DNA of 32,247 nucleotides, taken from Clostridiales bacterium. GTDB lineage: Bacteria > Bacillota > Clostridia > Oscillospirales > Oscillospiraceae. Below the pieces are notes generated by a model. It worked only from the letters and a program-made list of their open reading frames with translations, was not told the origin of the DNA and made no database searches. How positions within the stretch are numbered: the stretch's first letter is position 1; each line of letters begins with the position of its first letter. A program made the position numbers and the translations under genes. The stretch covers positions 1 to 32,247 of the forward strand of contig JAAYFX010000202.1 of the NCBI GenBank assembly GCA_012728025.1, read 5' to 3'. Shown here in pieces: positions 1,333-24,503 of this stretch.

Positions 1333-1347
1333 TGCGGAGGTGATTGT

Positions 1348-4549: not shown

Positions 4550-4561
4550 GCTTTGGCATAA

Positions 4562-5099: not shown

Positions 5100-5124
5100 A
5101 AGTTGTGGGGAAATTAAATACAGC

Positions 5125-5380: not shown

Positions 5381-5412
5381 GGGTGATTTGCATCCCCGCT
5401 GAGACTTCATGC

Positions 5413-5460
5413 AAAAAAACGGTTGCGGTGGGGCTTTGCCCGACGCAGCCGTTTTATCTT
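5413..5460 (+). terminator. Intrinsic terminator (riboswitch expression platform)
   Basis: A GC-rich hairpin aaaacggttgcgg...ccgacgcagccgtttt is followed by ttttatctt, about 50 nt before the cobU-like start. Confidence 0.7.
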
Positions 5461-5508
5461 AAAACCCTTTGCGATTTCGTGAAATGAGCAGAAAGGAAAG
5501 GCGTATAT

Positions 5509-7069: not shown

Positions 7070-7110
7070 AAAAGCCGGCGATGTCAGTCGGCATATACGG
7101 GGGAGAAAGC

Positions 7111-9052: not shown

Positions 9053-9053
9053 T

Positions 9054-9815
9054 ATGCTTAAGGTAGAAAATCTTGGTGTTTCCTACGGAGATTTAAAAAT
9101 ACTGGATGGGCTGAGCTTCACCTTGGAGCAGGGGCAATGGCTTATGATAGCAGGGCCAAACGGGGCGGGCAAAAGCACCGTTTTAAGAGCCTTGTCAAGG
9201 GGCTGCCGTTACACAGGGCAAATAAGCCTTAAAGGCAGGGATATAAAAAGGTTTAAACCCCACATTCTGGCACAAAAGCTGGGCTTTTTATCCCAACGCC
9301 ACGAGGTCACATATCCCTTTAAGGTCAGGGAAGTTGTGGCTTTGGGAAGGTATGCCCATTCAAAAAATGCCCTTTACGGAGGGGCGGCAGGGGATGAGGA
9401 AAAAGTTTCGGAGGCTCTATCCCTGACGGGGCTTTCTGAACTTGCCGAAAAATCCGTACTGGAGCTTTCCGGAGGGGAACTTCAAAGAACCTTCATTGCC
9501 CAGCTTTTTGCCCAAGACCCTGACATAATAGTTTTGGACGAGCCAACAAACAGCCTTGACCTTATCTACCAAAAGCAGGTATTCCAGCTTATAGAAGGGT
9601 GGATAAAAAAGGAGGGCAGGGCGGTAATATCGGTTGTCCACGACCTTAGCCTTGCAAGGCTTTACGGAACAAAGGCGATTTTGCTTGATAGGGGAAGGGT
9701 GGTTGCTATGGGGCAGCCCGAGAAGGTAATAAGCGAAAAATATCTTAATCCTGTGTATTCCATGGATGTTTCCGGATATATGAGGGAAATTTTGTCCACA
9801 TGGCAGAGGGGATAA
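9054..9815 (+). CDS. ABC transporter ATP-binding protein (BtuD/FepC type)
   Basis: Walker A GPNGAGKST, signature LSGGELQR and Walker B IIVLDEPT. The ATG at 9054 lies 1 nt after the permease stop, so I reject the 9015 extension. Confidence 0.85.
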   Translation: MLKVENLGVSYGDLKILDGLSFTLEQGQWLMIAGPNGAGKSTVLRALSRGCRYTGQISLKGRDIKRFKPHILAQKLGFLSQRHEVTYPFKVREVVALGRYAHSKNALYGGAAGDEEKVSEALSLTGLSELAEKSVLELSGGELQRTFIAQLFAQDPDIIVLDEPTNSLDLIYQKQVFQLIEGWIKKEGRAVISVVHDLSLARLYGTKAILLDRGRVVAMGQPEKVISEKYLNPVYSMDVSGYMREILSTWQRG

Positions 9816-9950: not shown

Positions 9951-11024
9951 TTAAATGTTATTGTAGCTTATGTCCTCTCCCATGGCGGTCATGCCATCGA
10001 GAGTGATTTTATTGCCGTCCCCGTCAATTACAAAACCTGTGACTGTGCCAAAGGGAGCTGTATAGTCTGCTCCGTTGCCCAAAAACTTTCTGTTAAGCTT
10101 GTAGCTGTCGTGGATGTGGAAAACAAGGCTAACACTGCCATATTTGTCAAAAACCTGCCAGTCGCCGTTTTCAAGATGCTGAAAATCAACATTGGGAAGA
10201 AGGTGGCCCCGCTCTCCCAGCCAAAGAATGTTTTCGCAATACTTATCAGGCTCCAATGCCTGATTTTTACAAAGGTTAAGCCCCAGCGGCAGACCGCCTG
10301 AAAAACCCATGCAGGTCATCCAGTCGTAGTGCATATGCCGGTGATAATAGCCCTTGTGGTCGTCTATTATTCCAAGACTTCTTTCATTGAGTTTGAAAAC
10401 CCTGTCGCCGATTTTTATGCTGCCCTCAGCCTTGAAAAGGTTTTTATAGGTATAAAGAGGGCGGTTTTCCCCCAAAGGCATAATGGTAACCACCGGCGAG
10501 GACAAGGCAATGAAAGAAAGCTCGGCCCCCATGGGAAGATGCTTTGGAGAGCGTGGCGAATAATCAGAAGAAATAAAAACCCTGCCACTTTCCAGATTGT
10601 TTCTGATTTCGGCCTTAAAAGCTCCTGTTTTCAGGCTGTTTACGCTGTTTATCAGACTGTTTTGTACGCATTTTCGAGGATAGGAGAAAATTTGTCTAGC
10701 CTTTACGGTTTTATCGACCCTATCGTAAAACATGAGAACATTAAAAACAGCAGAGCCCATATTATAAATTGCCCCGCAGATAAAACCCTCGTCAAAACAA
10801 ACCTCATAGGCTTCCCATTCTTTTATGCGCTGCCGATTTAAAAAAGTCGGCAGGGCAAGGGACAGGGGCCTGTGGGCTTCATGGATGTTAACGTCTTTTA
10901 TAAGGCCGTCGAAAGCGCCGAATATGGCCCTTCCCTCGGATACGGCACAATCAGGCGCAGACTTTGGAAATCTTTCCTTGTGGAGGATGTCGGGACGGGT
11001 AAAAGCATTATTTGAAATATACAT
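9951..11024 (-). CDS. Hypothetical protein, possibly DUF2804 family
   Basis: 357-aa ORF with a GGAGAAGGGG RBS, 28 nt downstream of the histidine kinase gene. The family call comes from memory of the general pattern (KEWEAYEV..., DDHKGYYHRHMHYDWM, ENILWLGERGHLLP) and is not verified. Confidence 0.4.
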   Translation of the reverse strand: MYISNNAFTRPDILHKERFPKSAPDCAVSEGRAIFGAFDGLIKDVNIHEAHRPLSLALPTFLNRQRIKEWEAYEVCFDEGFICGAIYNMGSAVFNVLMFYDRVDKTVKARQIFSYPRKCVQNSLINSVNSLKTGAFKAEIRNNLESGRVFISSDYSPRSPKHLPMGAELSFIALSSPVVTIMPLGENRPLYTYKNLFKAEGSIKIGDRVFKLNERSLGIIDDHKGYYHRHMHYDWMTCMGFSGGLPLGLNLCKNQALEPDKYCENILWLGERGHLLPNVDFQHLENGDWQVFDKYGSVSLVFHIHDSYKLNRKFLGNGADYTAPFGTVTGFVIDGDGNKITLDGMTAMGEDISYNNI

Positions 11025-11052
11025 ATTTCCCCTTCTCCGTAAGCACTATATT

Positions 11053-12024
11053 TTATGAGGGGCAGACTGAATGCTCCAGCTCTTGACTGTTTTCAACACT
11101 TTGGGAGATGGGCAGGCTTATTTTAATAGTCATTCCCATACCCTGTGAGCTTTGGGCAGAAATTGTTCCCCCCTGAGACTCTATGGCGGTTTTGGCAAGA
11201 TACAGCCCATGGCCATGGCCTATGGTTTTGTTGCTGCCTTGGAAATTCATTTCAAAGATGTACTGTGTCTGTTCTTCGCCCAGACCCAAGCCATCGTCTT
11301 TTATGGTGATATTGACAAAGGTGCCTGAGGCTTCAGCCATTATTGTCACATGACCTTCACGGCCCATGTATTTAAGAGAGTTTTCAAGGATGTTAAAAAT
11401 AACCTTGCTTATTTGATAAAAATCCCCCTCGATATAAAGACTATCCAAGGTGGAGATGGTTTGTATGTTGATGCCATGGTTTTTGGCAACAGTTTGCATA
11501 TCCTCGCCTATTTGACGCAGGAGAGCTATAATATCAAAACGTGAAAACTCCAAAGCAATTTCATCCGAAGCCCTGCATGAAGCCAGACGTTTTGTAAGGA
11601 TTTCGCTTATATACTGGGTGCGGTCAACTATTTTGCCAAGGTATTCTTTTTTCATTTCCTCGTTGGTGATGATGTCTTTTTCCAAAAGACCTGCATAACC
11701 CTGAACTATTGATAAAGGCATACGAAGCTGGTGGGACATAAGGCTGCGAAACTCCTCCAAGGCCTCATGGTTTGATTTGCTCATGGCGGCAAGCTCATCC
11801 TTATGGGCTTTTGCCTCATTGTCGGCAAGGGCTCTGAAAGCCTCATCCTGCTTTCGAGAGTCATTTAAAAGTTTTATTAATCTTCTTATATAAATGATAA
11901 GTATTGTAATGGCTGCCGCAAGACAGATGGTACAAGCTCCAAGGCTTATGTAAAGGTAAAGGATGGGAACTAAGGCCAGAAGTATCGCAAAGACTACCCA
12001 GATTATGCGGCTGTTTCTGAACAT
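11053..12024 (-). CDS. Sensor histidine kinase, intramembrane-sensing type (two N-terminal TM helices, no extracytoplasmic domain)
   Basis: H-box SHQLRMPLSIVQGY, N-box FNILENSLKY, and G-boxes IKDDGLGLG and GHGHGLYLAK. I prefer the ATG at 12024, which has AAGGAGGA upstream. The 12114 start would add a non-homologous extension across promoter-like AT-rich DNA. Confidence 0.85.
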   Translation of the reverse strand: MFRNSRIIWVVFAILLALVPILYLYISLGACTICLAAAITILIIYIRRLIKLLNDSRKQDEAFRALADNEAKAHKDELAAMSKSNHEALEEFRSLMSHQLRMPLSIVQGYAGLLEKDIITNEEMKKEYLGKIVDRTQYISEILTKRLASCRASDEIALEFSRFDIIALLRQIGEDMQTVAKNHGINIQTISTLDSLYIEGDFYQISKVIFNILENSLKYMGREGHVTIMAEASGTFVNITIKDDGLGLGEEQTQYIFEMNFQGSNKTIGHGHGLYLAKTAIESQGGTISAQSSQGMGMTIKISLPISQSVENSQELEHSVCPS

Positions 12025-12097
12025 TATGCGATTCCTCCTTAAGAATACTAAAAAACCCCTTAAAAATATGTTGAAAGCTGGAAAATAAAATGAGATA

Positions 12098-12106
12098 TGA
12101 TATAAT
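12098..12106 (+). promoter_or_regulatory. Candidate extended -10 element (TGaTATAAT) for the response-regulator/ATPase transcript
   Basis: An exact TGnTATAAT lies in the divergent intergenic region. No well-spaced -35 is present (TTGAAA sits 24 nt upstream). About 225 nt upstream of the RR start. Confidence 0.3.
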
Positions 12107-12248
12107 ATCCGCAAGCAGTTACCCTCAGGGGGCTGTGAACCTGTGGCATAATGGCCTAAAGGACATTATACAGATACAAGTGACCGGATAAAGGTAAAAA
12201 GCAAAATCTTCAGATGTGGTATGAATAAAAAGCACTTATTTTTCAGAT

Positions 12249-12286
12249 GCCTGTAAAGTAACTCTTATTATACACTATTTACAGGC
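12249..12286. repeat. 9-bp perfect inverted repeat gcctgtaaa(N20)tttacaggc in the HK/RR intergenic region
   Basis: Read directly from the sequence. Located 46 nt upstream of the RR start codon. It could be an operator or a leader hairpin. Confidence 0.4.
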
Positions 12287-12331
12287 TGCAATGCAATTAA
12301 ATTTGTAAAACCGCAGGGGGGGAATAAGCTT

Positions 12332-13012
12332 ATGTATAATGCACTTCTCGTTGAGGATGATAAGGATTTATCTATTATAACGCAGATGAACCTGACACAC
12401 GCAAACTATCAGGTAGATGCCGCATTCACCTGTCAGCAGGCTTTGGATTTTTTGGCGGGAAAGGAATACGACCTTATACTTTTGGACGTGGTGCTGCCCG
12501 ATAAGCGAGGGGATGAGCTGTGCAAAATAATCCGTGATGCCTGCACCTGCCCCATAGTGTTTATGAGCTGCCTTGACGACAGCAAAACCATAGTTAAGGC
12601 CCTGCGCAGCGGCGGCGACGATTATATGGTTAAGCCCATAAGCTATGACGAGCTTTTGGCTAGGGCAGATGCGGTTATCCGCCGCTCTAAAAACATAAGG
12701 GGCAATGATAAGCGGGGATTTCATCAGTTTAAGCAGTTTACTGTGGACACTGTCCGCCACAGAGTGCTGAAAGGTGAGGAGGAAATCTGCCTTTCGTCCA
12801 TTGAATACGAAATACTTAAATATATGGTAGAGCATCCGGATGAGCTTTTACTCTACCGTCAAATTTATGAAAACGTCTGGGATAGCGACAGTCTGGGTGA
12901 TGTGCGCACTGTTATGGTACATATTTCAAACCTTCGTAAAAAGCTGGACCCAGAGCGCACAGGCATAATAGAAACCGTACGTGGTGCGGGATACATATTC
13001 ACAAATATCTAA
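12332..13012 (+). CDS. OmpR/PhoB-family response regulator
   Basis: The receiver domain has the acidic pocket VEDD, phospho-acceptor LILLDVVLPD and the conserved Lys in YMVKP. The C-terminal winged helix reads LSSIEYEILKYM...VHISNLRKKL...IETVRGAGY. Confidence 0.9.
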   Translation: MYNALLVEDDKDLSIITQMNLTHANYQVDAAFTCQQALDFLAGKEYDLILLDVVLPDKRGDELCKIIRDACTCPIVFMSCLDDSKTIVKALRSGGDDYMVKPISYDELLARADAVIRRSKNIRGNDKRGFHQFKQFTVDTVRHRVLKGEEEICLSSIEYEILKYMVEHPDELLLYRQIYENVWDSDSLGDVRTVMVHISNLRKKLDPERTGIIETVRGAGYIFTNI

Positions 13013-13024: not shown

Positions 13025-15328
13025 ATGGCAAGTTTAAGTGAACTTTTTTCTCCTAGTAAAAGGGAAGTGCCCTTTGAAAGCTATCGTGAGTACACAGACT
13101 ATCTTTTTGCCTGCGTGGATATGCGCCTATCTGACTACATTGACGGGCTTATGGGGCTTTTTGCCAGCCAATCGGGAGGGTATAAAAACGTTATTTACCC
13201 TGATGTGGAAATTGCAAGGGACCTTTGCGACAAGCAGCTGGCGGAGTTTTTGCTGAAGTCCGGCGGGGAAACCGAAGATGAAAGCGGTTTTGCAAGGCCG
13301 CAAGAGCGGGCTGTGCCGCCAACAGAGCTGGATGAGCTTTTTGCCGAATTTGCCGAGGATGTTTCCTCGAGGGATGCGGGGGAGGGCCTTTCGGCCACAG
13401 ATTGCATGGAGCACATAAAAGACAGGGCAAAAAAAGCCCAAGGCAATATATTCATGCCCATGTACGAGCTTTGCGAAAAGCTGGGGCTTTCCCCTTTTAG
13501 CACCTTTTGCTTTGCCTGTGCTGTTTTATCCGCCACCCAGACAAGTTATGCCGGTGTTTTTCAGGTGGTTAACCAAAACGGCGCTTTGTCTGCTCCCACC
13601 ATCGAATCCGCTGCAAGAGTTTTTTACGGAAAGGATTTTTCCATAACCGAGGCATACAGTGAAATGTCCCTTGCACTAGAGCAGTTAACGCCGGTTTTTG
13701 CCCTTTCTATAAACAATGCAATGCCCTTTTCAACGGTTGTCTCTCCGGACAAGAGGATGATAGACTTTCTTTTCGGCCCCGAGCCAAACCGTATAGACGA
13801 AAACTATGCCCGTTTTTTCTCAAGACTTACAGATAAAAAGGAAATTGACCCCTTTATAGCAAACAGGGGCATCTTGGATGCTGTTAACATATTTTATGAT
13901 GACGGCGGGCGAATTGTTGCCCTTTGGGGAGATGAAGGGGCGGGAAGAAAGTTTACCATAACCCATTTCTGTCGGGATAGGGAAAAGGGCTGTGTTTCCA
14001 TCAACTGCACAAAGCTTTTTGTCTATGACTTTGCCTTTGTGGATAAGGCCCTTTGGGCTGCCGCCCGTGAATGTATTTTAACAGATTCCTGCGTCTGCCT
14101 AGACGGGCTTGCCTATCGTGAGGAGGAAAAGGAAAAGTTTTTCGGCTATATGGACTTGGCCTTTGGAAAGTTTACAAAATACGATATTCCCGCCTTTGCC
14201 GTCAGCATGGAAAAGCTGCCCATGAGGCAGATAAGCGACATGGATTTTGCCCAGATTGAAATTCCAACGCCGGACACAAGGGAACGTGAGCAGGTCTGGG
14301 ACCATTATGCACAGGGATACAGTTTTGCCGATGATGTTGACCTAACAGAGATGGCGGCAAAGTTTCTTTTCACATCGGGTAAAATAAAAAGTGCTATCCA
14401 TCAGGCAAAAACCCTTGCGGCCATGGATAAAAAAACCGATATCCCCCGCAGTATACTTTTCCAATCCTGCAACAACCAAATGAGCCACGAGCTTACCCAA
14501 AAGGCAACCCGTATTCCCGCAAAATTTGGCTGGAACGACATTGTTATGAATCCTGACCAGCGGCTTGCCCTTAAAAATGCCTGTGACCAGCTTATTTACC
14601 GCAAAAAAGTCTATGAAGAATGGGACTATCTGAAAAAATATCAATACGGCCGTGGGCTGTCTGTCCTTTTGTTCGGCGCCCCCGGAACGGGAAAATCTAT
14701 GTGCGCTCAGGTTATCGCAAACGAGCTTAATCTGGAGCTTTACAGGGTTGACCTATCCAAGGTTGTGGATAAATATGTAGGTGAGACGGAAAAGTCCATA
14801 TCCATGATTTTCAGGGAAGCGAAAAAGTGCAACGTAGTTTTATTTTTCGACGAGTGCGACACGCTTTTCGCAAAGCGCAGTGACGACGGCGGCTCGAACC
14901 AATCGTCCAACAACAACAAAACTGCCCTGCTTTTGCAGGAGGTGGAGGCTTACGATGGGGTTTCTGTCATGGCAACAAACTATAAGCACAATATAGACCC
15001 CGCCTTTTTCCGCCGCATGAAGTTTATAGTGGAATTTCAGTTTCCTGATGTGGAAACCCGCAAAATACTTTGGAATGCCACAATCCCGAAAAACACACCC
15101 TTGGCCGAGGATGTGGACATAGATTTTCTTGCCCAGCGCTTTGAGTTTGTGGGTGGAAACATAAAAAACTGCATACTCAATGCAGCCTTTTTGGCGGCTG
15201 CCGACCCAGAAGCCGAGGGGCAGGTGCATATGAAGCACTATTTACAGGCCATACGCTATGAATTTGTTAAAACCGGCAAGGTATTCACCCGTGCGGACTT
15301 TGAGCCTTATGCCCATCTTGTTCTCTAG
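13025..15328 (+). CDS. AAA+ ATPase with long N-terminal domain, Afp15/Pvc15-like (CIS-associated ATPase)
   Basis: 767 aa. Walker A GAPGTGKS (14675-14698) and Walker B VVLFFDECD (14834-14860). The flanking LYRVDLSKVVDKYVGETEKSISMIFREA, ATNYKHNIDPAFFRRMKFIVEFQFP and GGNIKN match my memory of the single-AAA ATPases found in eCIS loci. The AAGGAGG RBS overlaps the RR stop, with a 12-nt gap. Confidence 0.75.
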   Translation: MASLSELFSPSKREVPFESYREYTDYLFACVDMRLSDYIDGLMGLFASQSGGYKNVIYPDVEIARDLCDKQLAEFLLKSGGETEDESGFARPQERAVPPTELDELFAEFAEDVSSRDAGEGLSATDCMEHIKDRAKKAQGNIFMPMYELCEKLGLSPFSTFCFACAVLSATQTSYAGVFQVVNQNGALSAPTIESAARVFYGKDFSITEAYSEMSLALEQLTPVFALSINNAMPFSTVVSPDKRMIDFLFGPEPNRIDENYARFFSRLTDKKEIDPFIANRGILDAVNIFYDDGGRIVALWGDEGAGRKFTITHFCRDREKGCVSINCTKLFVYDFAFVDKALWAAARECILTDSCVCLDGLAYREEEKEKFFGYMDLAFGKFTKYDIPAFAVSMEKLPMRQISDMDFAQIEIPTPDTREREQVWDHYAQGYSFADDVDLTEMAAKFLFTSGKIKSAIHQAKTLAAMDKKTDIPRSILFQSCNNQMSHELTQKATRIPAKFGWNDIVMNPDQRLALKNACDQLIYRKKVYEEWDYLKKYQYGRGLSVLLFGAPGTGKSMCAQVIANELNLELYRVDLSKVVDKYVGETEKSISMIFREAKKCNVVLFFDECDTLFAKRSDDGGSNQSSNNNKTALLLQEVEAYDGVSVMATNYKHNIDPAFFRRMKFIVEFQFPDVETRKILWNATIPKNTPLAEDVDIDFLAQRFEFVGGNIKNCILNAAFLAAADPEAEGQVHMKHYLQAIRYEFVKTGKVFTRADFEPYAHLVL

Positions 15329-15368: not shown

Positions 15369-15599
15369 ATGGCCTTAAAAAAGGACTTAGACTGGCGCAT
15401 AGACCAGCAAAATAAAAGGAAAAGAACCCTCCCCATTGATGAAGAGCCGGAGGATATGGAGCTTTGGCTTCAAAGGGAAAGCGGCAACTCTATAAACACG
15501 CAAAAAAGCGTGTTTGACAAAAAAATCGGCAAAGACGGAATAAACACCGAGCCTTCGGTTTTTGACAAATTTGCCGTTTTTAAAAGTCAGCAGGAGTAA
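15369..15599 (+). CDS. Small hypothetical protein (76 aa) with an internal repeat; coding status uncertain
   Basis: GGAGGA lies 7 nt upstream of the ATG. The protein is hydrophilic. It contains the tandem repeat INTQKSVFDK/INTEPSVFDK, which coincides with two DNA/RNA hairpins (see findings). Confidence 0.3.
   Translation: MALKKDLDWRIDQQNKRKRTLPIDEEPEDMELWLQRESGNSINTQKSVFDKKIGKDGINTEPSVFDKFAVFKSQQE
15492..15569 (+). repeat. Two 30-nt repeat units (15492-15521 and 15540-15569), each with a hairpin core
   Basis: ATAAACAC-N13-TTTGACAAA occurs twice, 48 nt apart. The flanks are identical and the cores differ (GCAAAAAAGCGTG versus CGAGCCTTCGGTT), yet both keep stem potential with the flanks. Confidence 0.6.
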
Positions 15600-15624
15600 A
15601 ACATAATATAAGCTCTTAAAAACT

Positions 15625-15675
15625 AAAAACCATCTGCCCGCCCAAAACTTGCTTTGGGAGGGCAGTTGGTTTTTT
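15625..15675. terminator. Bidirectional intrinsic terminator
   Basis: A long hairpin aaaaaccatctgcccgcccaaa...tttgggagggcagttggttttt has an A-run and a T-run at its ends. It lies between convergent genes. Confidence 0.75.
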
Positions 15676-15682
15676 AAGTCTT

Positions 15683-16534
15683 CTAATTTTCTTTTGACGT
15701 CAGGAACAAGGCAGACCTTGAAAGGGGGCGCCCTTCAGGAGCCAGCCTTTCTAAAAGAGAGGTAGAAATTGCGTTTACGCAGTTTACTATAATTTCGGTG
15801 TCTTTTGGGTATTTTTCTAAAGCCCTTTGATAGGAAGCTGACAGCATTGAGGAAAAAGCGGCAGAGCCGCCTGCTCCGGAATCAGCGTAGGCAAGGGTAA
15901 GCTGCCCGTTAAAGGAGCGGTCAAACACCATAAATCCGTCTATCCGTGAGCCGTCCATAACGGCAACGGAAAGCTCAGGGTCAAGTTCTGCCTTATCAAG
16001 GGGAAGGGGCAGTATGGCCTCCTCGGATATACGGGCCGAGCGGTCCAACTCCCGTACACAGGATGTGGGGATTTCCAAAAATTGATGCACTTTCAGTCCT
16101 TCAGCGGCTTTTGAGAAAAACGGGGATTTTGAAAGGGAAGAAAGGTTGACGGAGTATATGGTTTCCCTTGGCTTTTTAAATTCAAAGCCTGAGTGCCGCA
16201 GAAAGTTTTCATACATAGAAAGCTCCCCGTTTGTCACAGTGAAGTCCGAGCGTATACCAAAAAGCGAGCTTTGCCCCTCCATACAGCTTTTTAGGCTTTC
16301 AAGAAGAAGCTTGCCGCCACCCCTGCCCCGCTTGACGGGGGCAACAAAAAAGGATGAAATCTCAAAATATCCGTCTCTTGGGCCGCCGGCAAGGGCGCCG
16401 CAGGCCTCCTCATTTTCAACAAGGCCCAAAGCGAAAATGGGTTTGCCTTCTTTCAAAAGCAAAGCGGCATCCGGAAGGAGAAAAGAGGTAAAAAAGTCAA
16501 GGTTTCCACGGTCTATTATGGTCGTTTCCATCAT
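15683..16534 (-). CDS. GNAT-family acetyltransferase-like protein (283 aa)
   Basis: Acetyl-CoA motif A-like FFVAPVKRGRGGGKLLLESL. It begins 12 nt after the stop of the 503-aa gene, with GGGGGGAGGA upstream. Confidence 0.6.
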   Translation of the reverse strand: MMETTIIDRGNLDFFTSFLLPDAALLLKEGKPIFALGLVENEEACGALAGGPRDGYFEISSFFVAPVKRGRGGGKLLLESLKSCMEGQSSLFGIRSDFTVTNGELSMYENFLRHSGFEFKKPRETIYSVNLSSLSKSPFFSKAAEGLKVHQFLEIPTSCVRELDRSARISEEAILPLPLDKAELDPELSVAVMDGSRIDGFMVFDRSFNGQLTLAYADSGAGGSAAFSSMLSASYQRALEKYPKDTEIIVNCVNAISTSLLERLAPEGRPLSRSALFLTSKEN

Positions 16535-16546
16535 TTATCCTCCCCC

Positions 16547-18058
16547 CTATTCTTCTTCTGCGGACGCTGCTTTGTAGCGCTGCAAAGCAGATTCAGCTGG
16601 ATTGCTTAGGGGTTTTCCGAGTAAAAGGTGCGCCATAATATCCATAAGAGCCCCTGCATAGTGCTCCATAAGATTATCTTCTTTGGAACATTTATCTAAT
16701 AAGATGCTTGCCTGATGTGTAAGCCAAGTTTTAATCGGGTCTTCAGTAGGGTTGATACTGTTATTATTCTGCACTCTTTGCAGCTTAAGCCTGTAAAGAA
16801 AACGCTCGCTGCGACTGCTTTGAGTCTTAAAAAAGTCGGAAAAAACCTTGTCGATTAATTCCCTATTACGCTGATATGCTTCGGGATTTTCGAGAATCAT
16901 ATTCCGATATTTTGCAAAATCCTCATATAAAAGCGGAGTGCCGCCATTGGGGAAGGAAACACCGAATTTCTGCGATAAAAGCTCATCTTGCTCGGCGAAT
17001 TCTCTCTCTAATTCTAAGGAGTTTTCTGCCGCCACAAGCCGCTCAACCTCATTAGCGAAGAGATTTTTCACACCGCTGCCATAAGACCTAAGCTTGCTTG
17101 AATAATTTGCTGTGGCATCGTCTCGCATATTAAGGCCAAGCTCTATCGGCACCTTGCTGTCATAACCGTAAACCTTTCCGACGTTAAAATTAATACCCAA
17201 TGCGTTCATATGCATAGAGAAGGCATGGGTAAATGCGACTCCCAATCTGGATTGCTCTTCAAGAACCTCCTGCTCAAGCTGGGGCAGTTGTTCAAAATAT
17301 TCGGGGTTTTCTTTTTGCAGGTTTTCAAAATATGTAAACTTATCTGCCATTGCCTTATATTCGGCAGCCCGCCTTATAAGGTTTTCCGGCGTAAACATAT
17401 CCGGCTTCATGCTAAAAGTCCAACTTATCATTTCCGTTTTTATACGGTCAAGGTGGGGGCGGCGCAAAAGGGGGTCGCCACTTGCGTACTCTCGCATAAA
17501 GCTGCCGTTTTCCTTTTGAATATACTCGTCTATGGCACTTGCGGGCTTACCCTTTCTATCAAGGTTATAGTCTTGGCAGAAAGCCCTCAGGATACGGGGG
17601 TCAGAGCCGCTTTTTTCCACAAGCCCTCTGACTTCGTCGTCGATTACAGCTGTGCGGCAATCAATAGACGCCCTTATCTGGGCGGCAATTTCCATAGTGT
17701 TTTCATCCCCTACGGGGCAGACCTTTCTGGCGGCCTTAAGTTTTTTCTGCCGCTCACGCCTTGCTTTATAACTCTCGCTTGCCACAGGCTGCGCTGTGAG
17801 GGGCCCCGAGACATTGGCCGAGGAGGTAACCCGAATTCTCCTAGCCTGTCTTCCCATTTGGCCTATGGCGGCTTGGCCATAAGCAGTCTGATATTCCATA
17901 ATGTTTTCAGCAAAGCTCTCTTTTTGCCGTTGCAGCTGCTCACCTTGGGCACCTCCCCAGCTTTGGAGGGGTTGAAGGTGTTCTAATTGCGCCGGAGCCT
18001 GCTCCTGACGTTCCCGCACATCTTTGATTTCTCTTTGTTTCAGGATTTCTTCGTCCAT
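16547..18058 (-). CDS. Hypothetical protein (503 aa) with a charged, low-complexity N-terminal region; no recognisable domain
   Basis: Long ORF with an AAGGGGG RBS. The first ~110 aa are rich in Q/E/R/K/A (EILKQREIKDVRERQEQAPAQLEHLQPLQ...ARRERQKKLKAARK). I saw no catalytic motif such as HExxH. Confidence 0.6.
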   Translation of the reverse strand: MDEEILKQREIKDVRERQEQAPAQLEHLQPLQSWGGAQGEQLQRQKESFAENIMEYQTAYGQAAIGQMGRQARRIRVTSSANVSGPLTAQPVASESYKARRERQKKLKAARKVCPVGDENTMEIAAQIRASIDCRTAVIDDEVRGLVEKSGSDPRILRAFCQDYNLDRKGKPASAIDEYIQKENGSFMREYASGDPLLRRPHLDRIKTEMISWTFSMKPDMFTPENLIRRAAEYKAMADKFTYFENLQKENPEYFEQLPQLEQEVLEEQSRLGVAFTHAFSMHMNALGINFNVGKVYGYDSKVPIELGLNMRDDATANYSSKLRSYGSGVKNLFANEVERLVAAENSLELEREFAEQDELLSQKFGVSFPNGGTPLLYEDFAKYRNMILENPEAYQRNRELIDKVFSDFFKTQSSRSERFLYRLKLQRVQNNNSINPTEDPIKTWLTHQASILLDKCSKEDNLMEHYAGALMDIMAHLLLGKPLSNPAESALQRYKAASAEEE

Positions 18059-18257
18059 ATCATAGCCCCCTTATATTATTGTTCATATTTCAAAGCAGAG
18101 TATAAAAAGGTGGTTTCCATGCAATTTATAAACCAGATGCCTTATTACTATTTATATATTAGCACAAAACTTCGGTATATAAAGCCGGCAATCCTAAAGG
18201 TTTTCTAAAACAAGTCTGTTTTCAGCTATATGGAGGCCTATAAAGCCTTCGCCGACA

Positions 18258-18286: not shown

Positions 18287-18536
18287 GTTAATATGGAAGA
18301 AAGATGAAGAGTTTGTCCTTGAGCTTTGGAGCAAGGCCATGAACTTTGATATAAATGGGGGGAAGCTAGGTGGAAAAGCAGGAGGAAAAATCCCTGCGGG
18401 ACAATGATGTTTTCATACGCAAACCTTCAGAAAGTTTCTTTTCCCCTCTATACTGTCTCTTTTAGGCGGCACCATATCAAGCTTTTCCGGCGGGGTTATA
18501 GCAGGTAATGTATTAGGTGCCGGCGGACTTGCAGCC

Positions 18537-20135
18537 ATGGGCATTGTAAGCCCTGTCTTTTTCGTCTACACAAGCCTTGGCTCTCTTATAGGTGTTGGGG
18601 GCGCTGCCCTTTCCTCCCGCCGTTTGGGACGGGATGACCATGAAGGGGTCAGCAGGCTTTTTTCCCTTTCTCTTGCACTTATGCTGGTGGTTGGGCTTTT
18701 GGTTACAGTTGGGGCTCTTGTGTTTCTTGAAAAGCTTCTTGACATTCTTGGGGCTCAGGGGGAGATAAGAAGCGCAGCCAGAGATTATTGCCTTTACTTT
18801 ATCCCCGGGGCCATAACAACCATGCTTTTATACATACCCCTTAACTTCTTCCGTATAACGGGAAAGCCGAACATAGGCGTTTGGATGTTTGGCATAATGG
18901 CTCTGGGTAACATATGCTTCAGCCTTGTGTTTTTGCTGGTGTTTGACATGGGCATGGGGGGCATAGGTCTTTCGGCGGTATTGTCAAATTTGGCGGCCCT
19001 ACTATATAGCCTCCATGGGTTTTTCAAAAAGGACTCATACCTTCGTCTTGTAAGCTTTAAAAGTGAAATAAAAACCACAGGGGAGCTTCTTGCCACAGGC
19101 AGCCCCATGGCTCTTACAAACCTTTTCACGGTTTTGAGAACACTTTTATATAACAGGCTGCTGCTTAGTATTTTAGGACTGGGAGGGCTTGCGGTATTTA
19201 CCGTTTTGGCAAATGTGAACACCTTTGCCCTTTCCATCCTTTTGGGAGTTTCCCAAACTATTATTCCTCTAACGGGGGTTTTCTTCGGGGAAAAAGACTA
19301 TGTAAGCATCCGCCATGTTATGGGGGCTTCCCTGCGTTGGGGGCTTTTTCTGGCAACGGCCTTTGGTCTTGCTCTGGCTGTCTTTTGGAAAAGCATATGT
19401 CACATTTTCGGTCTTTACGACGAGAGCCTTTTCCAGTCGGCCATGTTTGCAATTTTCATGTTTGCCTTGAGTATGCCCTTTGCCATGGTTACAAATCTTT
19501 ATCAGTTTCACTTTATGACCATAGGTGTGCTATGGTTTTCAAACCTTATATCCGCCTGCCGCTGCCTTATCCTGCCTCTTGCCGCATCACTTTTTTTATC
19601 AAAGGTTTCCCCCCTTGCAGTTTGGGCGGGCATACCTGCGGGCGAGGCTTTGACGGTGTTGCTGACTCTTGCTGTTTCATATATTTACGGCAAAAAACGG
19701 GGACTTTCAAGGCTTCTTCTTTTAAATGAGGAAGACGAGAAAAATTCCCGCTCCATAGCCTTTTCTGTTAAAAACGATACGGATTCCATAATAAATGCCT
19801 CGGAAAAGATTTCGGAGTTTTCGGCGGTCAATAAAATCGATGAAAAAAGAGCCATGTTTATTTCTCTGGCCTTAGAGGAACTTTTATTGTCCATATCCCA
19901 AAATGCCTTTGAAGACCATGACGAGGGCTATATGGACGTTCGTCTCCTGTCGGGAACAGACCATGTTATCCTGCGCATACGAAACGGCGGTCGGGAATTT
20001 GACCCCATAAGCTTCTACGAAAGCAATCCGGATAATATGGAAGAAAGCCTTGGAATTAAAATGGTGGCTGCCTCTGCCCGTGACATAAAATATACAAGAA
20101 CCCTCGGCGTTAACAACCTAAGCGTACTGATATAA
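18537..20135 (+). CDS. MATE-family efflux transporter fused to a C-terminal RsbW/SpoIIAB-like HATPase domain; the 5' end appears frameshifted
   Basis: About 395 aa of polytopic MATE-like sequence is followed by about 130 aa collinear with the RsbW-like protein at 23526 (LALEELLLSISQNAF, VILRIRNGGREFDP, ESLGIKMV, YTRTLGVNNLSVLI). The same frame stays open upstream to 18408 and encodes TM1-like FRKFLFPSILSLLGGTISSFSGGVIAGNVLG without a start codon. Confidence 0.7.
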   Translation: MGIVSPVFFVYTSLGSLIGVGGAALSSRRLGRDDHEGVSRLFSLSLALMLVVGLLVTVGALVFLEKLLDILGAQGEIRSAARDYCLYFIPGAITTMLLYIPLNFFRITGKPNIGVWMFGIMALGNICFSLVFLLVFDMGMGGIGLSAVLSNLAALLYSLHGFFKKDSYLRLVSFKSEIKTTGELLATGSPMALTNLFTVLRTLLYNRLLLSILGLGGLAVFTVLANVNTFALSILLGVSQTIIPLTGVFFGEKDYVSIRHVMGASLRWGLFLATAFGLALAVFWKSICHIFGLYDESLFQSAMFAIFMFALSMPFAMVTNLYQFHFMTIGVLWFSNLISACRCLILPLAASLFLSKVSPLAVWAGIPAGEALTVLLTLAVSYIYGKKRGLSRLLLLNEEDEKNSRSIAFSVKNDTDSIINASEKISEFSAVNKIDEKRAMFISLALEELLLSISQNAFEDHDEGYMDVRLLSGTDHVILRIRNGGREFDPISFYESNPDNMEESLGIKMVAASARDIKYTRTLGVNNLSVLI

Positions 20136-20215
20136 GCGCCTGCTTACAAGTTAGACAGGGGCTATGGATTTTCTGTTGCTCACAAGTTTTGACATTAAGG
20201 ATGGAAGTGCTGAAA

Positions 20216-21286
20216 ATGGTAGAACTTACGAGGGAAAAAACCGGAGAAAAATTAAGCTGCGATTTTAAAGAAGTCAACCCCGATGCAATGGAGGATATTT
20301 TAGGCTTTCAAGCCTGCATACGTGACGAATATGGGGAGAGCTATCCACGAGATTATATATATAAGCCTCATGAGCTGGCGGAAAAAATAAGGCAAGGCGA
20401 GATTTTATGCTATCTTGCCTTAAGTGACAGGAAAGACCCTGTGGCAAGCCTTGCCCTGACCCCCTTCAAAGGGCTTGAAAGGGTGCCTGAGATGACCATG
20501 CACGTAGTCAGAAAGACATATAGGGGCTTTGGTGTCGGCACTGAGTTTACAAAAGCTGTGTTAGATAGCCCCCCCATAGACGAGTACAATGCTGTTGCAA
20601 TACATTCTGTCACCTTCCATTCCATAGCCCAGCGTCAGACCATAAGCTGTGGCTTTTTACCCACAGGCTTTTTGCTTTCCGTTCACAGCAACGATATATT
20701 AAAGCATTCCTTTGACATAAACGGCTGCCGCAAACAGTCCTTTGCCGTAGCCGTTTTGCCCAAGGGAAAAAAAGATGCGGGCAGTCTGCACTTGCCGCCG
20801 GAGCATGAAAGTTTTATAAAAGGCATATACGAAAAACTTAGCGTGGTCTTTAAGCAGGCAGATGGAAAAAACTCTGAAGGTAAAACCGAATATCACTGTG
20901 AACAGGACGAAACCCATCTTACAAAAACAACAGAAGTTTTTAAATGCGGTGAAGATTTTGAAAAGCTTACGGATGCACTTTTACAAAAGCCGTATAAAAT
21001 GGGGCAAACCATAAATGTTTTTATAAACTTAAATGACCCTTGTGCGGTTTATGCTTATGAGGTTCTTAAAAATCGTGGCTTTATTTTCACAGGGCTTCAT
21101 CCCCTGTGTGCAAACGGTGAATTTATGATAATGCACCACCCGCTGGGCTTGGGCTTGCCCTTAGACAGGCTGGAAATTGATGAGGGATACAGGCGGGTTT
21201 ACGACTATATAGCTTATGGTCAGATAAAAAGCCAGAGGGAAGGTTCGGCAAATGAAGAAAAGATGCCTATGCTGCCGATTACATGA
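20216..21286 (+). CDS. GNAT-family acetyltransferase-like protein with an uncharacterised ~200-aa C-terminal extension
   Basis: Motif A-like HVVRKTYRGFGVGTEFTKAVL. The start is uncertain (TTG 20189, ATG 20201 or ATG 20216); 20216 has GGAAG 9 nt upstream. Confidence 0.55.
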   Translation: MVELTREKTGEKLSCDFKEVNPDAMEDILGFQACIRDEYGESYPRDYIYKPHELAEKIRQGEILCYLALSDRKDPVASLALTPFKGLERVPEMTMHVVRKTYRGFGVGTEFTKAVLDSPPIDEYNAVAIHSVTFHSIAQRQTISCGFLPTGFLLSVHSNDILKHSFDINGCRKQSFAVAVLPKGKKDAGSLHLPPEHESFIKGIYEKLSVVFKQADGKNSEGKTEYHCEQDETHLTKTTEVFKCGEDFEKLTDALLQKPYKMGQTINVFINLNDPCAVYAYEVLKNRGFIFTGLHPLCANGEFMIMHHPLGLGLPLDRLEIDEGYRRVYDYIAYGQIKSQREGSANEEKMPMLPIT

Positions 21287-21314
21287 GCTTTACATATTTT
21301 ATCAGGAGGTCATT

Positions 21315-23438
21315 ATGAAAACCATACGGGGAAAAATATTCTTAATACTTCTCGTTATCTCATTATTCTCTCTGGTTCTTATGGGCGTTGTCACCTTTAT
21401 AAGCGTGGACATGATAAGAACAGACGTTTTTGAGGCCAGCAGCAACCTTGGTGTCACAGCGGGAGACAGCAGCGGCAAGGCTGTTGAAACGCAGATACTC
21501 GAAAGGCTCAGCTCCACTGCCGAAACAAAGGCATCAATAGCTGACGAAAAGCTTGGAAAACAGCAGACATATACACAGGTTTTGGCAAACTATGCAGGGG
21601 AGCTTTATGCAAATCCCGAGAATTATTTTGGAAAAGATGCTTCGCCGCCGGAGCCTGCTCTTGCAGGCATAAATACGGCGCAGCTTTTGCTTGCGGAAGG
21701 GCTGTCTCTATCAGAGCTTGAGGACGAAATTGGCCTTGTGGCAAACTGCAATGAAATATTACTGCATATTACGGAAGTTGACGAGGATATAACAGCGGAC
21801 TACATAGCCACTGAAAGCGGATTTGTCATAATGGTGGACCCCGATTCGGACAAAAAGCCTGAGAATATAGACGGCAGACAAAGGGGTTGGTATATAGACG
21901 CAAAGGGTGAGGGAAGTCTTATTTGGACGGATGTTTTCAGCGACGCCATGGGGCGTGGGCTTGCTATAACCTGTGCCGCCCCTGTTTTTGACTCTTTGGG
22001 AAACTTTAAAGCCGTTGTGGGCATAGGCGCTTTGATGACAAATTTAAACGAAGAAATAATAAGCACCTCCATAGGTGAAACAGGTTATGCCTTTGTGGTT
22101 AACCAAGGGGGCAATGTTATAATCTCCCCTTATATCCAAAAAGGTGAGAATGGGGAGATTATAACTGCCGATATGACCCAGCACGAAAATCCCGAAATTG
22201 CAAAGATGATGGAAGATATGCTTGCGGGTGTTTCTTCCGTTGCTCAGGTTGAATATGAGGGAAGGCAGGTTTATATGGCCTGCCAGCCCATGTCTGTTTT
22301 GCCTTGGGGTGTTGTGACTGTTATGGATGTGGATGAGGCCCTTCGCCCCGTCAGCGAGGTTTACGATAGCATAATGGACATGACGGATGCCGCAATACTG
22401 GCTGTGGACAATTCTGTGAAAACTGCGCTTATAGCCATAGCCGCCATTGTCTGCGCTGTTTTGGTTATGGTTTTCATATTAGGTTCTTTTTTCTCAAAAA
22501 AACTCACAGGGCCCTTGGCTCACTTAAGCCGTGGAGTGGAGGAAATATCTGAAGGTAATCTGGATACGAAGCTGGATATTAAAACCGGAGATGAAATTGA
22601 AACTTTGGCTCTGGCCTTTAACTCCATGACAGGCAGCCTTCAGCGGCATATAAAAGAGCTAACGGAGGTTACGGCAGAAAAAGAGCGCATAGGAGCAGAG
22701 CTTAATGTTGCAACGCAAATTCAGGCCTCCATGCTGCCCTGTATTTTTCCGCCCTTCCCCGAGCATAAGGAGCTTGACATTTTTGCAAGTATGCGGCCTG
22801 CTAAGGAAGTGGGGGGCGACTTTTACGACTTTTTCCTTGTGGACGAAGAAAACCTCGGTGTTGTTATAGCGGACGTTTCCGGCAAGGGTGTGCCGGCGGC
22901 GCTGTTTATGGTTATAGCAAAAACCCTTATCAAAAACCACACGCAAAACGGCGAAGCGCCCTCGCAGGTTTTAACCTCGGTTAATACCCAGCTTTGCGAA
23001 AATAACGATGCCGCCATGTTCGTAACCGCTTGGATGGGGGTTTTGAACATTAAGACCGGCAAAATGGTTTATGGCAACGCAGGCCATAACCCCCCGCTTT
23101 TAAAGCGCTCTGATGGAAGCTTTACCTACCTTAAATCCGACCCAGCCTTTGTTTTGGCAGGGCTTGAAAACATATCCTATGGGGAGTTTGAGCTGAACCT
23201 TTCCGGCGGGGATATTTTGTATCTATATACAGATGGGGTGACAGAGGCCACTGATATTTCCGATGAGCTTTTCGGAGAGGAACGGCTTAAAGATGTTTTG
23301 GATGAAAACTCGGATAAAGACATGAAGGGGATTTTAAATGCTGTGGAGGAGGCTATGGAAGTATTTGTGGGCGAAGCGGAGCAGTTTGATGATATTACAA
23401 TGCTTGGAATTAAATTTAAAGGCAGGGAAAACGCATAG
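21315..23438 (+). CDS. Membrane sensor phosphatase: TM, dCache-like domain, TM, HAMP, PP2C/SpoIIE (RsbU-like)
   Basis: I prefer the ATG at 21315 (AGGAGG 5 nt upstream) over 21252. TM1 is IFLILLVISLFSLVLMGVVTFISV. A periplasmic Cache-like segment contains GWYIDAK...TCAAPVFD...GYAFVVNQGGNVI. TM2 is followed by a HAMP domain (LTGPLAHLSRGVEEISEGNLD...ETLALAFNSM). PP2C motifs are GGDFYDF, ADVSGKGVPAALFM, LYLYTDGVTEA and FDDITML. Confidence 0.85.
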   Translation: MKTIRGKIFLILLVISLFSLVLMGVVTFISVDMIRTDVFEASSNLGVTAGDSSGKAVETQILERLSSTAETKASIADEKLGKQQTYTQVLANYAGELYANPENYFGKDASPPEPALAGINTAQLLLAEGLSLSELEDEIGLVANCNEILLHITEVDEDITADYIATESGFVIMVDPDSDKKPENIDGRQRGWYIDAKGEGSLIWTDVFSDAMGRGLAITCAAPVFDSLGNFKAVVGIGALMTNLNEEIISTSIGETGYAFVVNQGGNVIISPYIQKGENGEIITADMTQHENPEIAKMMEDMLAGVSSVAQVEYEGRQVYMACQPMSVLPWGVVTVMDVDEALRPVSEVYDSIMDMTDAAILAVDNSVKTALIAIAAIVCAVLVMVFILGSFFSKKLTGPLAHLSRGVEEISEGNLDTKLDIKTGDEIETLALAFNSMTGSLQRHIKELTEVTAEKERIGAELNVATQIQASMLPCIFPPFPEHKELDIFASMRPAKEVGGDFYDFFLVDEENLGVVIADVSGKGVPAALFMVIAKTLIKNHTQNGEAPSQVLTSVNTQLCENNDAAMFVTAWMGVLNIKTGKMVYGNAGHNPPLLKRSDGSFTYLKSDPAFVLAGLENISYGEFELNLSGGDILYLYTDGVTEATDISDELFGEERLKDVLDENSDKDMKGILNAVEEAMEVFVGEAEQFDDITMLGIKFKGRENA

Positions 23439-23525
23439 AAACACCGCAGTTGTGGAAGAATCTACCTAAGGGTCGCCGCAGCTTACAGGCAGGCGGCATA
23501 TAAACCGACAAGGAGCTGAAAGCCC

Positions 23526-23948
23526 ATGAAAGAACTTATTATAAGCGCAGAAACAGAGCGTCTGGAGGAAGTTCTGGCCTTCGTTCGAGGGATACTGGAA
23601 AGCTATAATTGCCCTATGGAAGACCTTATCGCCATAGAGATTGCGGTGGAGGAGATATATGTTAACATTGCCCACTATGCCTATCATCCGGAGGTTGGCG
23701 AGGCAAGCATACGCTGCCGTGTGGAAAAAGAGCCCCTGCGGGTAATTATAGAGTTTATGGACGGGGGGATTCCCTATAATCCCCTTGAAAAGGCAGACCC
23801 CGATATAAGCCTTTCCGCAGAAGAAAGGGATGTTGGCGGCCTTGGTATATACATGGTGAAAAATAGCATGGATGATGTGGCCTACAAACGTGAAAACGGG
23901 AAAAATATTTTCACAATACAGAAAAATTTAAGAGAAACGGCAGGCTAA
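23526..23948 (+). CDS. RsbW/SpoIIAB-type anti-sigma-factor-like serine kinase (HATPase_c_2)
   Basis: 140 aa. N-box EEIYVNIAHYAY and G-boxes FMDGGIPYNP and GGLGIYMVKNSMD. AAGGAG RBS upstream. Confidence 0.8.
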   Translation: MKELIISAETERLEEVLAFVRGILESYNCPMEDLIAIEIAVEEIYVNIAHYAYHPEVGEASIRCRVEKEPLRVIIEFMDGGIPYNPLEKADPDISLSAEERDVGGLGIYMVKNSMDDVAYKRENGKNIFTIQKNLRETAG

Positions 23949-23973
23949 AAAGGCCCCCCATAAAAAATGCGTA

Positions 23974-24013
23974 AAAAGCCAAGACCCTTATACAATTATG
24001 GGTCTTGGCTTTT
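23974..24013. terminator. Bidirectional intrinsic terminator between the kinase and STAS genes
   Basis: aaaagccaagaccc (23974-23987) pairs perfectly with gggtcttggctttt (24000-24013) around a 12-nt loop. Confidence 0.75.
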
Positions 24014-24078
24014 ATATATGGATTTAAAAACAGGATAAGAAAAAAGCTGAAATATAGCTTTTTGAGCTTAAATCCCCT

Positions 24079-24378
24079 TTAGTTAATGGTCAGAATTTTT
24101 GAAAAGCCCACAGATTCCAATATGGAAAACACCGCCGGTGAAACATTTTTAAGTTCCATGGTAAGCCCCTTTGAAGCCGCTGTCTTTTGCCCGATAAGAA
24201 GGGCACGAAGTCCCGCACTGCTTATGTAAGGCACAGCGGCAAAATCAACCGTTACGGTTTTTGCCGTTTGAAAGGCTTTTAGCAGGGCATCTTGAAGCTG
24301 GGGGCTGGTGTTGGTGTCTATCCGGCCCTCTATGGCCAAAATAGTGTTTGCGCCCTCCTGCGATGTTTTGATAGTCAT
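24079..24378 (-). CDS. Single-domain STAS protein (RsbV/SpoIIAA-like anti-anti-sigma factor)
   Basis: I prefer the ATG at 24378 (AAGGAG upstream), giving 99 aa; I reject the 24474 extension. ILAIEGRIDTNTSPQLQDAL...VDFAAVPYISSAGLRALL carries the conserved phosphorylatable Ser context. Confidence 0.85.
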   Translation of the reverse strand: MTIKTSQEGANTILAIEGRIDTNTSPQLQDALLKAFQTAKTVTVDFAAVPYISSAGLRALLIGQKTAASKGLTMELKNVSPAVFSILESVGFSKILTIN

Positions 24379-24503
24379 ACTTACACGCTCCTTGAATTTA
24401 TTAGCCGTCAAGCCCGAAACCCCTGAGACAAAAGCTTGAAATCGTGGCTTTGGGCATCGGAGATTTAAAAACAATTTATAAAGAAAAGTTTGACCGCATA
24501 TTT

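Follow-up and report, generated by a model that had tools for sequence, protein, structure and literature searches.

A rapidly diversifying helical protein family and its tandem-GNAT partner as candidate cargo and helper of clostridial contractile injection systems

We analysed a DNA stretch of 32,247 nt from a Clostridiales bacterium (Oscillospiraceae; assembly GCA_012728025.1, contig JAAYFX010000202.1, positions 1 to 32,247 of the forward strand), hereafter called the window, with focus on a two-gene minus-strand operon in a contractile injection system (CIS) locus. The first open reading frame (ORF), at 16547-18058 (-), encodes a 503 amino acid (aa) protein predicted to be all-alpha, for which we use the name fam503. 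The second, at 15683-16534 (-), encodes a 283-aa tandem-GNAT protein which AlphaFold2 (AF2), Foldseek and synteny together identify as the conserved partner of fam503. With about an even chance of being right, we suggest that fam503 is a new family of CIS cargo, either effector or effector carrier, served in the producer cell by the tandem GNAT as a dedicated helper. The CIS lineage that the pair would serve is common in Oscillospiraceae and related Clostridia from gut and digester. We arrive at this reading because fam503 genes form tandem arrays, are fused to calpain- and kinase-like domains, evolve fast, encode a hydrophilic N-terminus and are linked to CIS genes, and because the GNAT also pairs with eCIS_core proteins, named after extracellular CIS (eCIS). 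A first-pass annotation of the same DNA had proposed a cargo and modifier pair. CIS co-occurrence, arrays, fusions and the lack of housekeeping homology agree with that proposal, while the orphan status, the disordered leader of the Photorhabdus virulence cassette (PVC) type and the tRNA-acetylating toxin (AtaT/TacT type) that were mentioned with it are not supported.

Searches of Pfam, NCBIfam, PHROG, PADLOC and PDB sequences gave no match to fam503; the first-pass annotation, too, had recognised no domain in the protein. In Pfam this includes the DUF4157/eCIS_core domain, which is absent. Housekeeping homology was likewise found neither in the curated libraries, nor among PDB sequences, nor by Foldseek. 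The protein is not an orphan as first described, since a word-indexed search returned 15 clusters at 25-100% identity, and with a profile built from 13 members we searched 1.84 billion representatives and obtained 401 clusters at E <= 1e-3, of which 168 reached E <= 1e-30. fam503 is an undescribed, unannotated and rapidly diversifying family.

To describe the architectures of the family we mapped domains on 159 sequences, made up of the 150 matches listed by the profile search and, from the first search, nine further relatives. Of these, about 60% are stand-alone proteins of ~480-530 aa, 57 carry C-terminal extensions of at least 150 aa, and some repeat the core module two to four times. This module spans profile positions ~100-340, and relatives either carry it in repeats or join it to other C-termini; positions ~340-500 form a second module. 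Five of the extended members have a calpain-type Peptidase_C2 domain, and three have DRHxxN and IDND motifs along with sub-threshold matches to PI3_PI4_kinase. No recognisable relatives were found for a group of 21 members with a ~250-aa extension or for a group with a ~530-aa extension, and a PDB profile search with the latter subgroup (alignment A4) gave no match. Judged from the sequences, a conserved N-terminal platform with exchangeable, putatively enzymatic C-termini is a polymorphic-effector architecture, of which the window fam503 is the platform-only version.

The AF2 model of fam503, built from a shallow alignment, is all-alpha with 18 helices (mean per-residue confidence, pLDDT, of 85; predicted TM-score, pTM, of 0.75). 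Foldseek gave no match below E 0.1 in PDB (best E 0.53, TM ~0.15) or in BFVD (best E 0.12), and the predicted fold is new relative to these two collections. The protein starts with a variable, hydrophilic, Q/E-rich leader (residues 1-72; 17843-18058, -), delimited by hydropathy, AF2 and alignment A1, in which residues 3-72 are predicted as two long helices (pLDDT 56-84) and are poorly conserved in the alignment. It is followed by a Pro/Ala/Gln-rich linker predicted as disordered (residues 75-91; 17786-17836, -; pLDDT <50), and by a conserved basic helix with a CPVGDE turn (residues 94-119, SESYKARRERQKKLKAARKVCPVGDE; 17702-17779, -), which according to alignments A1 and A2 and hmmalign is the best-conserved stretch of the family. 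The remainder, residues 120-503 (16550-17701, -), is a confident helical core with pLDDT mostly >90 and with further near-invariant residues at D153, G170, L203, N251 and F255. The first ~110 residues had earlier been described as low-complexity, disordered and rich in Q, E, R, K and A. The enrichment is confirmed, at 54.5% of residues 1-110 against 34.9% of the remainder, whereas the predicted disorder is limited to residues 75-91, with helices at 3-72 and conservation at 94-119.

The leader is clearly hydrophilic. The Kyte-Doolittle (KD) sum of its first 35 aa is -44.9, with a family median of -48 in 18 sampled members, and 12 of the 16 residues at positions 6-21 are disorder-promoting. In eCIS toxins the first ~35-50 residues are hydrophilic and disorder-promoting, and the KD sum of Pdp1 is -36.9 (PMC11297309). 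Neither a signal peptide nor a transmembrane segment is present, and fam503 reaches a maximum 19-residue hydropathy of 1.0 with no hydrophobic segment. On this value, together with the compact fold and the multi-copy gene, we rejected a membrane pore-former. We also rejected a tape measure of the Pvc14/Afp14 kind, because of the compact fold (pTM 0.75), the several gene copies and their place outside the structural operon, and because tape-measure matches are not significant (E > 0.2); a related CIS operon already has unassigned proteins of 631 and 908 aa.

The two genes of the pair differ strongly in how fast they change. Compared with a close relative (L020), the GNAT is 93% identical at the protein level and the flanks are 85-93% identical at the DNA level, but fam503 is only 50% identical. 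Counting non-synonymous (dN) and synonymous (dS) substitutions by Nei-Gojobori gave dN 0.380, dS 0.670 and dN/dS 0.57 for fam503, against dN 0.033, dS 0.474 and dN/dS 0.07 for the GNAT. Non-synonymous change is hence ~11-fold faster in fam503 at comparable dS, and the GNAT is under strong purifying selection. The conserved islands of fam503 in this comparison are the basic helix and the SGDPLLRRPHLDRI...FTYFENLQKENPEYF motifs; the basic-helix island is 86% identical in nucleotides inside a gene otherwise 50-70% identical. A similar comparison with the L001 genome gives 78% identity for the spike protein and only 39% for fam503. Such fast change of fam503 would fit a target-facing or otherwise diversifying protein. 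With homologues under purifying selection (dN/dS 0.07-0.57), fam503 and the GNAT are by this sequence measure real genes.

We read the gene context of 12 distinct loci, to which the pattern scans of genomes and metagenomes contributed close relatives only (three loci and one locus). A CIS marker was found nearby in 11 of the 12. Co-occurrence with CIS loci in other genomes, whose absence would have spoken against the first-pass proposal, is strong. Baseplate genes lie within 10 kb of fam503 in seven loci (the window, L005/L014, L001/L016, L007, L009, L015 and L019), and in six of these, all but L019, the gene order is the one of the window even at 39% identity. Other Oscillospiraceae contigs carry the same neighbourhood of baseplate, STAS, regulators, fam503, GNAT, small ORF and AAA, at 39-83% identity. 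In L019 four fam503 paralogs and one GNAT follow directly after baseplate and STAS on the same strand, and this array occupies the canonical CIS payload position. Three to four fam503 members are interleaved with GNATs in L011-L013, beside an ATPase with a winged-helix domain (WHD) and an AAA domain. The response regulator, large AAA, small ORF, transporter and SpoIIE genes are kept in L017/L018, where the fam503 member has 1448 aa, and in L023, with the order shuffled; the L023 pair lies ~18-27 kb from the CIS on the same contig.

The pair is also found together with other payload candidates. In L024 a GNAT is followed by a kinase-like fam503 fusion and then by an eCIS_core protein. Further eCIS_core neighbours are present at L009 and at L015, the last assigned from homology to L009; in both loci these proteins are inserted beside the pair and each is followed by a GNAT. 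In L001 the insertion is an 856-aa ADP-ribosyltransferase (ART) toxin with its own WHD-AAA ATPase. Neither this toxin nor a 903-aa protein after the STAS gene of L022 is a fam503 member, and on reading the sequences no common N-terminal motif was obvious among fam503, the ART toxin and the eCIS_core proteins. We also considered EAT12 (Ccel_1518; 'Nucleoporin?', Firmicutes; Geller 2021) as a fam503 protein and rejected it, as it has only 59 aa.

The AF2 model of the 283-aa partner (pLDDT 87.8) contains two GNAT folds, and Foldseek relates it to tandem GNATs with probability 1.00. Its neighbours are Kribbella 4my3 (E 1.6e-11), CBG 2wpw, Legionella VipF 7wx7 (5.7e-10), a glucosamine N-acetyltransferase and Eis. 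Motif A, the acetyl-CoA pyrophosphate-binding loop, was located at residues 64-81 (VAPVKRGRGGGKLLLESL; 16292-16345, -) by alignment A3. Here the pattern R/Q-x-x-G-x-G/A is present as R69-G-R-G-G-G, with R69 invariant and G72 conserved in at least 90% of the 11 homologues. The Pfam scores of the window protein, 17.1-20.1 bits, are all under the gathering cutoffs (the closest being Acetyltransf_1, 19.8 vs 20.7), and several homologues carry precomputed Pfam GNAT matches. The membership of the window protein in the GNAT superfamily rests on the predicted fold, which bears out the earlier assignment as GNAT-like. The earlier idea of a toxin acetylating aminoacyl-tRNA is not supported; we rejected the AtaT/TacT/ItaT type because the protein is a 283-aa tandem and not a single domain of ~175 aa, and because its only operon partner is the 503-aa helical protein encoded upstream. 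Pfam gave no match to an antitoxin family (DUF1778/RHH) near the GNAT, and none to HlyC for the GNAT itself. A GNAT of the same family adjoins or lies within the fam503 array, upstream or downstream, in 11 of the 12 loci, and full-length homologues (E 5e-11) flank eCIS_core (DUF4157) proteins. Its N-terminus is a structured, hydrophobic beta-strand (KD +16.5), unlike the leader of fam503.

From this we propose a possible course of events. The fam503 protein would present its leader (1-72), disordered linker (75-91), basic helix with CPVG turn (94-119) and compact helical core, a platform that relatives retain and extend at the C-terminus, for instance by a calpain-like cysteine protease or a domain resembling PI3/4-kinases. 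The GNAT, as a dedicated partner of both fam503 and eCIS_core (DUF4157) effectors, would most likely stay in the producer cell and modify or otherwise assist the effector, after which the putative Pvc15-like AAA+ ATPase may pass the effector to the particle. We place the GNAT on the producer side because of its structured hydrophobic N-terminus, the purifying selection, the tandem fold with motif A, the pairing with eCIS_core proteins and the pattern seen at Lys98. The data themselves show that the genes are real, how large the family is, and its new predicted fold, synteny, pairing, fusions and rates of change, whereas we infer loading into the particle, injection and, by analogy, a substrate for the GNAT.

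The analogy concerns Lys98 in the basic helix. Among 145 aligned members (from the hmmalign set of 159) 90% have Lys at this position and only 2% Arg, whereas K and R interchange freely at basic sites near it, which suggests that the amine itself matters. In the HlyC-HlyA and CyaC-CyaA systems a small GNAT-fold acyltransferase gene lies beside a secreted toxin gene, and internal lysines of the toxin are modified before export. By analogy with such HlyC-type protoxin acylation, Lys98 is a candidate acceptor for the GNAT. Further, we speculate that the cargo is licensed by acylation: the GNAT would acylate or acetylate Lys98, and a corresponding site of eCIS_core proteins, and this modification would be needed for loading by the ATPase or for activating or silencing the effector. 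We hold this specific version to be rather improbable; if true, it would be a HlyC-like maturation of a pro-effector, undescribed for any contractile injection system.

Several observations weigh against fam503 as a cargo. The 12 loci that were read are a small share of the ~400 clusters, and the window copy has no recognisable enzymatic domain. The pair had earlier been placed in the CIS locus beside the ATPase, which is correct on both counts, but in the window ~6.4 kb of opposite-strand genes, a regulatory block, separate it from the CIS structural operon. In L002-L004, GNAT and CIS genes are both missing within 10 kb of the two tandem fam503 copies. Loading signals of PVC-type lineage Ia have pLDDT <40 over residues 1-50 (PMC11495950), whereas the same residues of fam503 are helical with pLDDT ~70, and there is no aromatic residue among its first eight positions. 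The earlier likening of the N-terminus to a disordered PVC leader is not supported by the model, and the charged stretch is instead a conserved structural motif. It should be noted that the published loading-signal criteria (PMC11297309, PMC11495950) come from lineages other than that of fam503. Finally, regulatory genes surround the pair, and in L023 the stop codon of a SpoIIE phosphatase gene and the start codon of the pair overlap.

This overlap is the strongest point for reading the pair as an accessory that regulates the CIS or aids its assembly without being injected, for example an acetylation-controlled output or scaffold of the STAS/RsbW/SpoIIE module. The pair is always found amid genes for response regulator and histidine kinase, SpoIIE, RsbW-like, STAS, GGDEF and transporter-HATPase_c_2 proteins; an RsbW-like gene follows the fam503/GNAT array of L011-L013; and the pair keeps its place, whereas the obvious toxins beside it (ART, eCIS_core) are present in some loci and absent from others. 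Regulators, however, rarely form three to four tandem paralogs or calpain- and kinase-like fusions, and they rarely outpace their neighbours ~11-fold in non-synonymous change. A regulatory accessory is rather unlikely in our judgement.

Alternatively the roles might be reversed, with the tandem GNAT as the delivered acetyltransferase and fam503, like the eCIS_core proteins, as an adaptor tethering it to the CIS. The Legionella effector VipF, a tandem GNAT of ~285 aa, is among the structural neighbours; fam503 and eCIS_core, though unrelated to each other, both have partners from this one GNAT family; and the GNAT is conserved as expected of an enzyme. In addition, the Streptomyces eCIS_core protein Sle2 is reported to bind the CIS core and to be associated with the cargo Sle1 (PMC13277306). 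We consider a delivered GNAT unlikely, as fam503 members with protease- or kinase-like domains of their own still adjoin a GNAT, L019 has four fam503 genes per one GNAT, the fast-evolving partner is fam503, as is usual for a target-facing component, and a hydrophilic leader is missing from the GNAT. The pair might also be a toxin module of its own (toxin-immunity or toxin-antitoxin), or a polymorphic toxin with a different export route, that hitch-hikes near CIS loci. This is suggested by the two copies of L002-L004 with no CIS gene within 10 kb, by the serine recombinase flanking L017 and by the occurrence of GNAT toxins in toxin-antitoxin systems, but is very unlikely given CIS markers in 11 of 12 loci, a GNAT that is a 283-aa tandem and not ~175 aa as in AtaT/TacT, no signal peptide or transmembrane segment, and no matches in PADLOC or to DUF1778/RHH, LXG, WXG and Rhs in Pfam.

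As first annotated, the pair forms a two-gene minus-strand operon with a spacer of 12 nt, and the ORF coordinates match exactly. A strong Shine-Dalgarno-like run, AAGGGGG, is located at 18066-18072, 5' of the fam503 ATG, and the likewise strong ribosome-binding site of the GNAT gene, GGGGGGAGG at 16539-16547 (-), overlaps the stop codon of fam503. The short spacer suggests that translation of the two genes is coupled. A simple promoter scan gave no convincing minus-strand sigma-70 promoter 5' of the pair. At the other end, between the GNAT gene and a convergent small ORF, the operon is closed by a hairpin at 15618-15683 (-34.9 kcal/mol, z = -6.4 vs shuffles) with A- and U-runs on its flanks, which we predict to be a bidirectional intrinsic terminator common to both genes.

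The pair lies ~350 bp from the ATPase operon. This operon contains a 767-aa ATPase at 13025-15328 (+), with Pfam matches to AAA (5.6e-27) and WHD (1.3e-4), which is kept adjoining the pair in related loci. It has the WHD at residues 126-251, a degenerate D1 (GDEGAGRKF) at about residue 300 and a canonical Walker A/B of a D2 AAA domain at residues 547-672, with PDB matches of the VCP D2 type. The architecture of N-terminal domain with WHD, degenerate D1 and active-type D2 is consistent with a Pvc15/Afp15-like ATPase. We rejected an anti-phage defence role, as the ATPase has only generic AAA similarity to IetA/IteA, far under the cutoff. Directly 3' of the large AAA ATPase, in the window at 15369-15599 (+) and in all related loci, lies a conserved, very hydrophilic 76-aa ORF with a duplicated SVFDK motif, dN/dS 0.09-0.13 and phmmer matches in all syntenic loci.

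A second, shorter WHD-AAA ATPase of 692-728 aa was observed beside the inserted toxin cassette in L001 (12424-17261), L009 (16872-20846) and L015 (12374-18866), which points to payload cassettes that move together with an ATPase of their own. In L017 a serine recombinase (7229-8656) and a small sigma-70-like gene (6707-7192) flank the GNAT and the 1448-aa calpain-fusion member, which hints at mobility of effector cassettes.

The regulatory block on the other side of the pair covers 18537-23948 (+) and consists, by Pfam, of a MatE and HATPase_c_2 fusion, a 365-aa protein with a weak GNAT match, a dCache-HAMP-SpoIIE phosphatase and an RsbW-like kinase; a STAS gene follows at 24079-24474 (-). A partner-switching module is built into the CIS locus, with STAS as the last gene of the CIS operon and then the RsbW-like kinase and the SpoIIE phosphatase, and with no sigma factor gene adjoining. 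The same set (18537-24474) is present in L001, L005, L009, L015, L017 and L023, with an extra GGDEF protein in some loci. The MatE-family transporter with its C-terminal HATPase_c_2 (RsbW-like) domain, at 18300-20135 (+), is an unusual fusion, replaced in L023 by a transporter of the major facilitator superfamily. In the window its gene has a frameshift near 18400-18420, with the start of the L005 orthologue (residues 1-26) matching a different frame; this is either an assembly error or a pseudogene. The 365-aa protein at 20189-21286 (+), between the MatE and SpoIIE genes, has a faint GNAT signal (E 0.01) and no detectable relation to the 283-aa tandem GNAT; it is kept in the loci with the MatE-SpoIIE block (L001, L005, L009 and L015).

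The distal part of the CIS operon, at 24504-32143 (-), was assigned by Pfam and PHROG to Tail_P2_I, Baseplate_J, a 1017-aa wedge protein, gp25 and a Phage_base_V spike, and the operon extends past the window edge. A complete related operon, in a 3.2-Mb Oscillospiraceae genome, has sheath, gp19 tube, DUF6760, two CIS_tube, GPD-like, spike, gp25 and wedge proteins, and also 631-aa and 908-aa proteins without assigned role; another related contig adds a DUF4280 PAAR-like gene. At E <= 1e-10 a search with the spike of the window gave 725 homologues, of which those with names come from metagenome-assembled genomes of Oscillospiraceae, Gracilibacteraceae and Clostridiales Family XIII. Upstream in the window, scans with Pfam and PHROG gave ethanolamine-utilisation (eut) and bacterial microcompartment (BMC), cobalamin and B12-transport genes at 285-9815 (+), followed at 9951-13012 (mixed strands) by a DUF2804 protein, a histidine kinase and an OmpR-type response regulator. 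The part at 285-5099 (+) belongs to an ethanolamine-utilisation/microcompartment cluster (RnfC-like flavoprotein, BMC shell protein, EutH, EutQ) unrelated to the pair. At 5509-6479 (+) adjacent ORFs of 198 and 125 aa both match CobU, the shorter one at the C-terminal profile end only, which may reflect the remnant of a duplication or one gene split in two.

Anaerobic Clostridia commonly have CIS loci, as illustrated by the 725 spike homologues. Next to nothing is known of the cargos, and the toxin predictors in use depend on DUF4157 or PVC-type leaders. If our reading is true, a new-fold effector-platform family of ~400 clusters would be a handle for annotating clostridial CIS payloads, would suggest activities of a eukaryote-like kind (a calpain-type protease and a kinase-like activity on lipid or protein), and would offer a large structured loading module usable for engineering. 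The systematic tandem-GNAT partner also raises the idea, undescribed so far, that CIS cargo may need a post-translational licence before it is loaded. Our literature search found no paper tying CIS cargo to an acetyltransferase partner or to calpain-type domains, and GNATs are unmentioned in Geller 2021 and Danov 2024.

Among known systems, polymorphic toxins of the LXG, MIX and Rhs kinds share with fam503 a conserved N-terminal domain (helical in fam503), variable C-termini and tandem paralogs. fam503 differs from them in having no Pfam match to these families and in being linked to CIS and not to type VII or type VI secretion systems. The partner resembles VipF, 4my3, CBG 2wpw and Eis in having two GNAT folds in one chain of ~280-390 aa (Foldseek E 1e-9 to 1e-11), but identity is 10-20%, TM-scores are only 0.4-0.5 and the genomic context is another one. 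Compared with HlyC and CyaC, the window GNAT has no Pfam HlyC match, is a tandem and not a single domain, and would serve a CIS and not type I export, hence we regard the analogy as mechanistic only.

The closest comparison is with the eCIS-associated toxins (EATs) and payloads of PVC and Afp, such as Pdp1, Pnf and Afp18 (EATs of Geller 2021, Danov 2024). Like these, fam503 is encoded distally in a CIS locus beside a putative Pvc15-like ATPase, has a hydrophilic N-terminus, is variable and often multi-copy, and has relatives with enzymatic C-termini. Unlike the described payloads it has no sequence or fold similarity to them and no DUF4157, its leader is predicted as helical and not disordered, and in place of a signal of ~20-50 residues it has a conserved platform of ~400 residues, along with a systematic GNAT partner and a Gram-positive anaerobe as host. 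Sle1/Sle2 of Streptomyces lividans (PMC13277306) differ in that the Sle1 platform is related to tape measures, to which fam503 has no significant match, and in that the partner of Sle1 is an eCIS_core protein where fam503 has a tandem GNAT. With fam503 they share a conserved N-terminal platform, exchangeable C-termini and a dedicated partner, and an eCIS_core protein is also found beside some fam503 members, as in L024.

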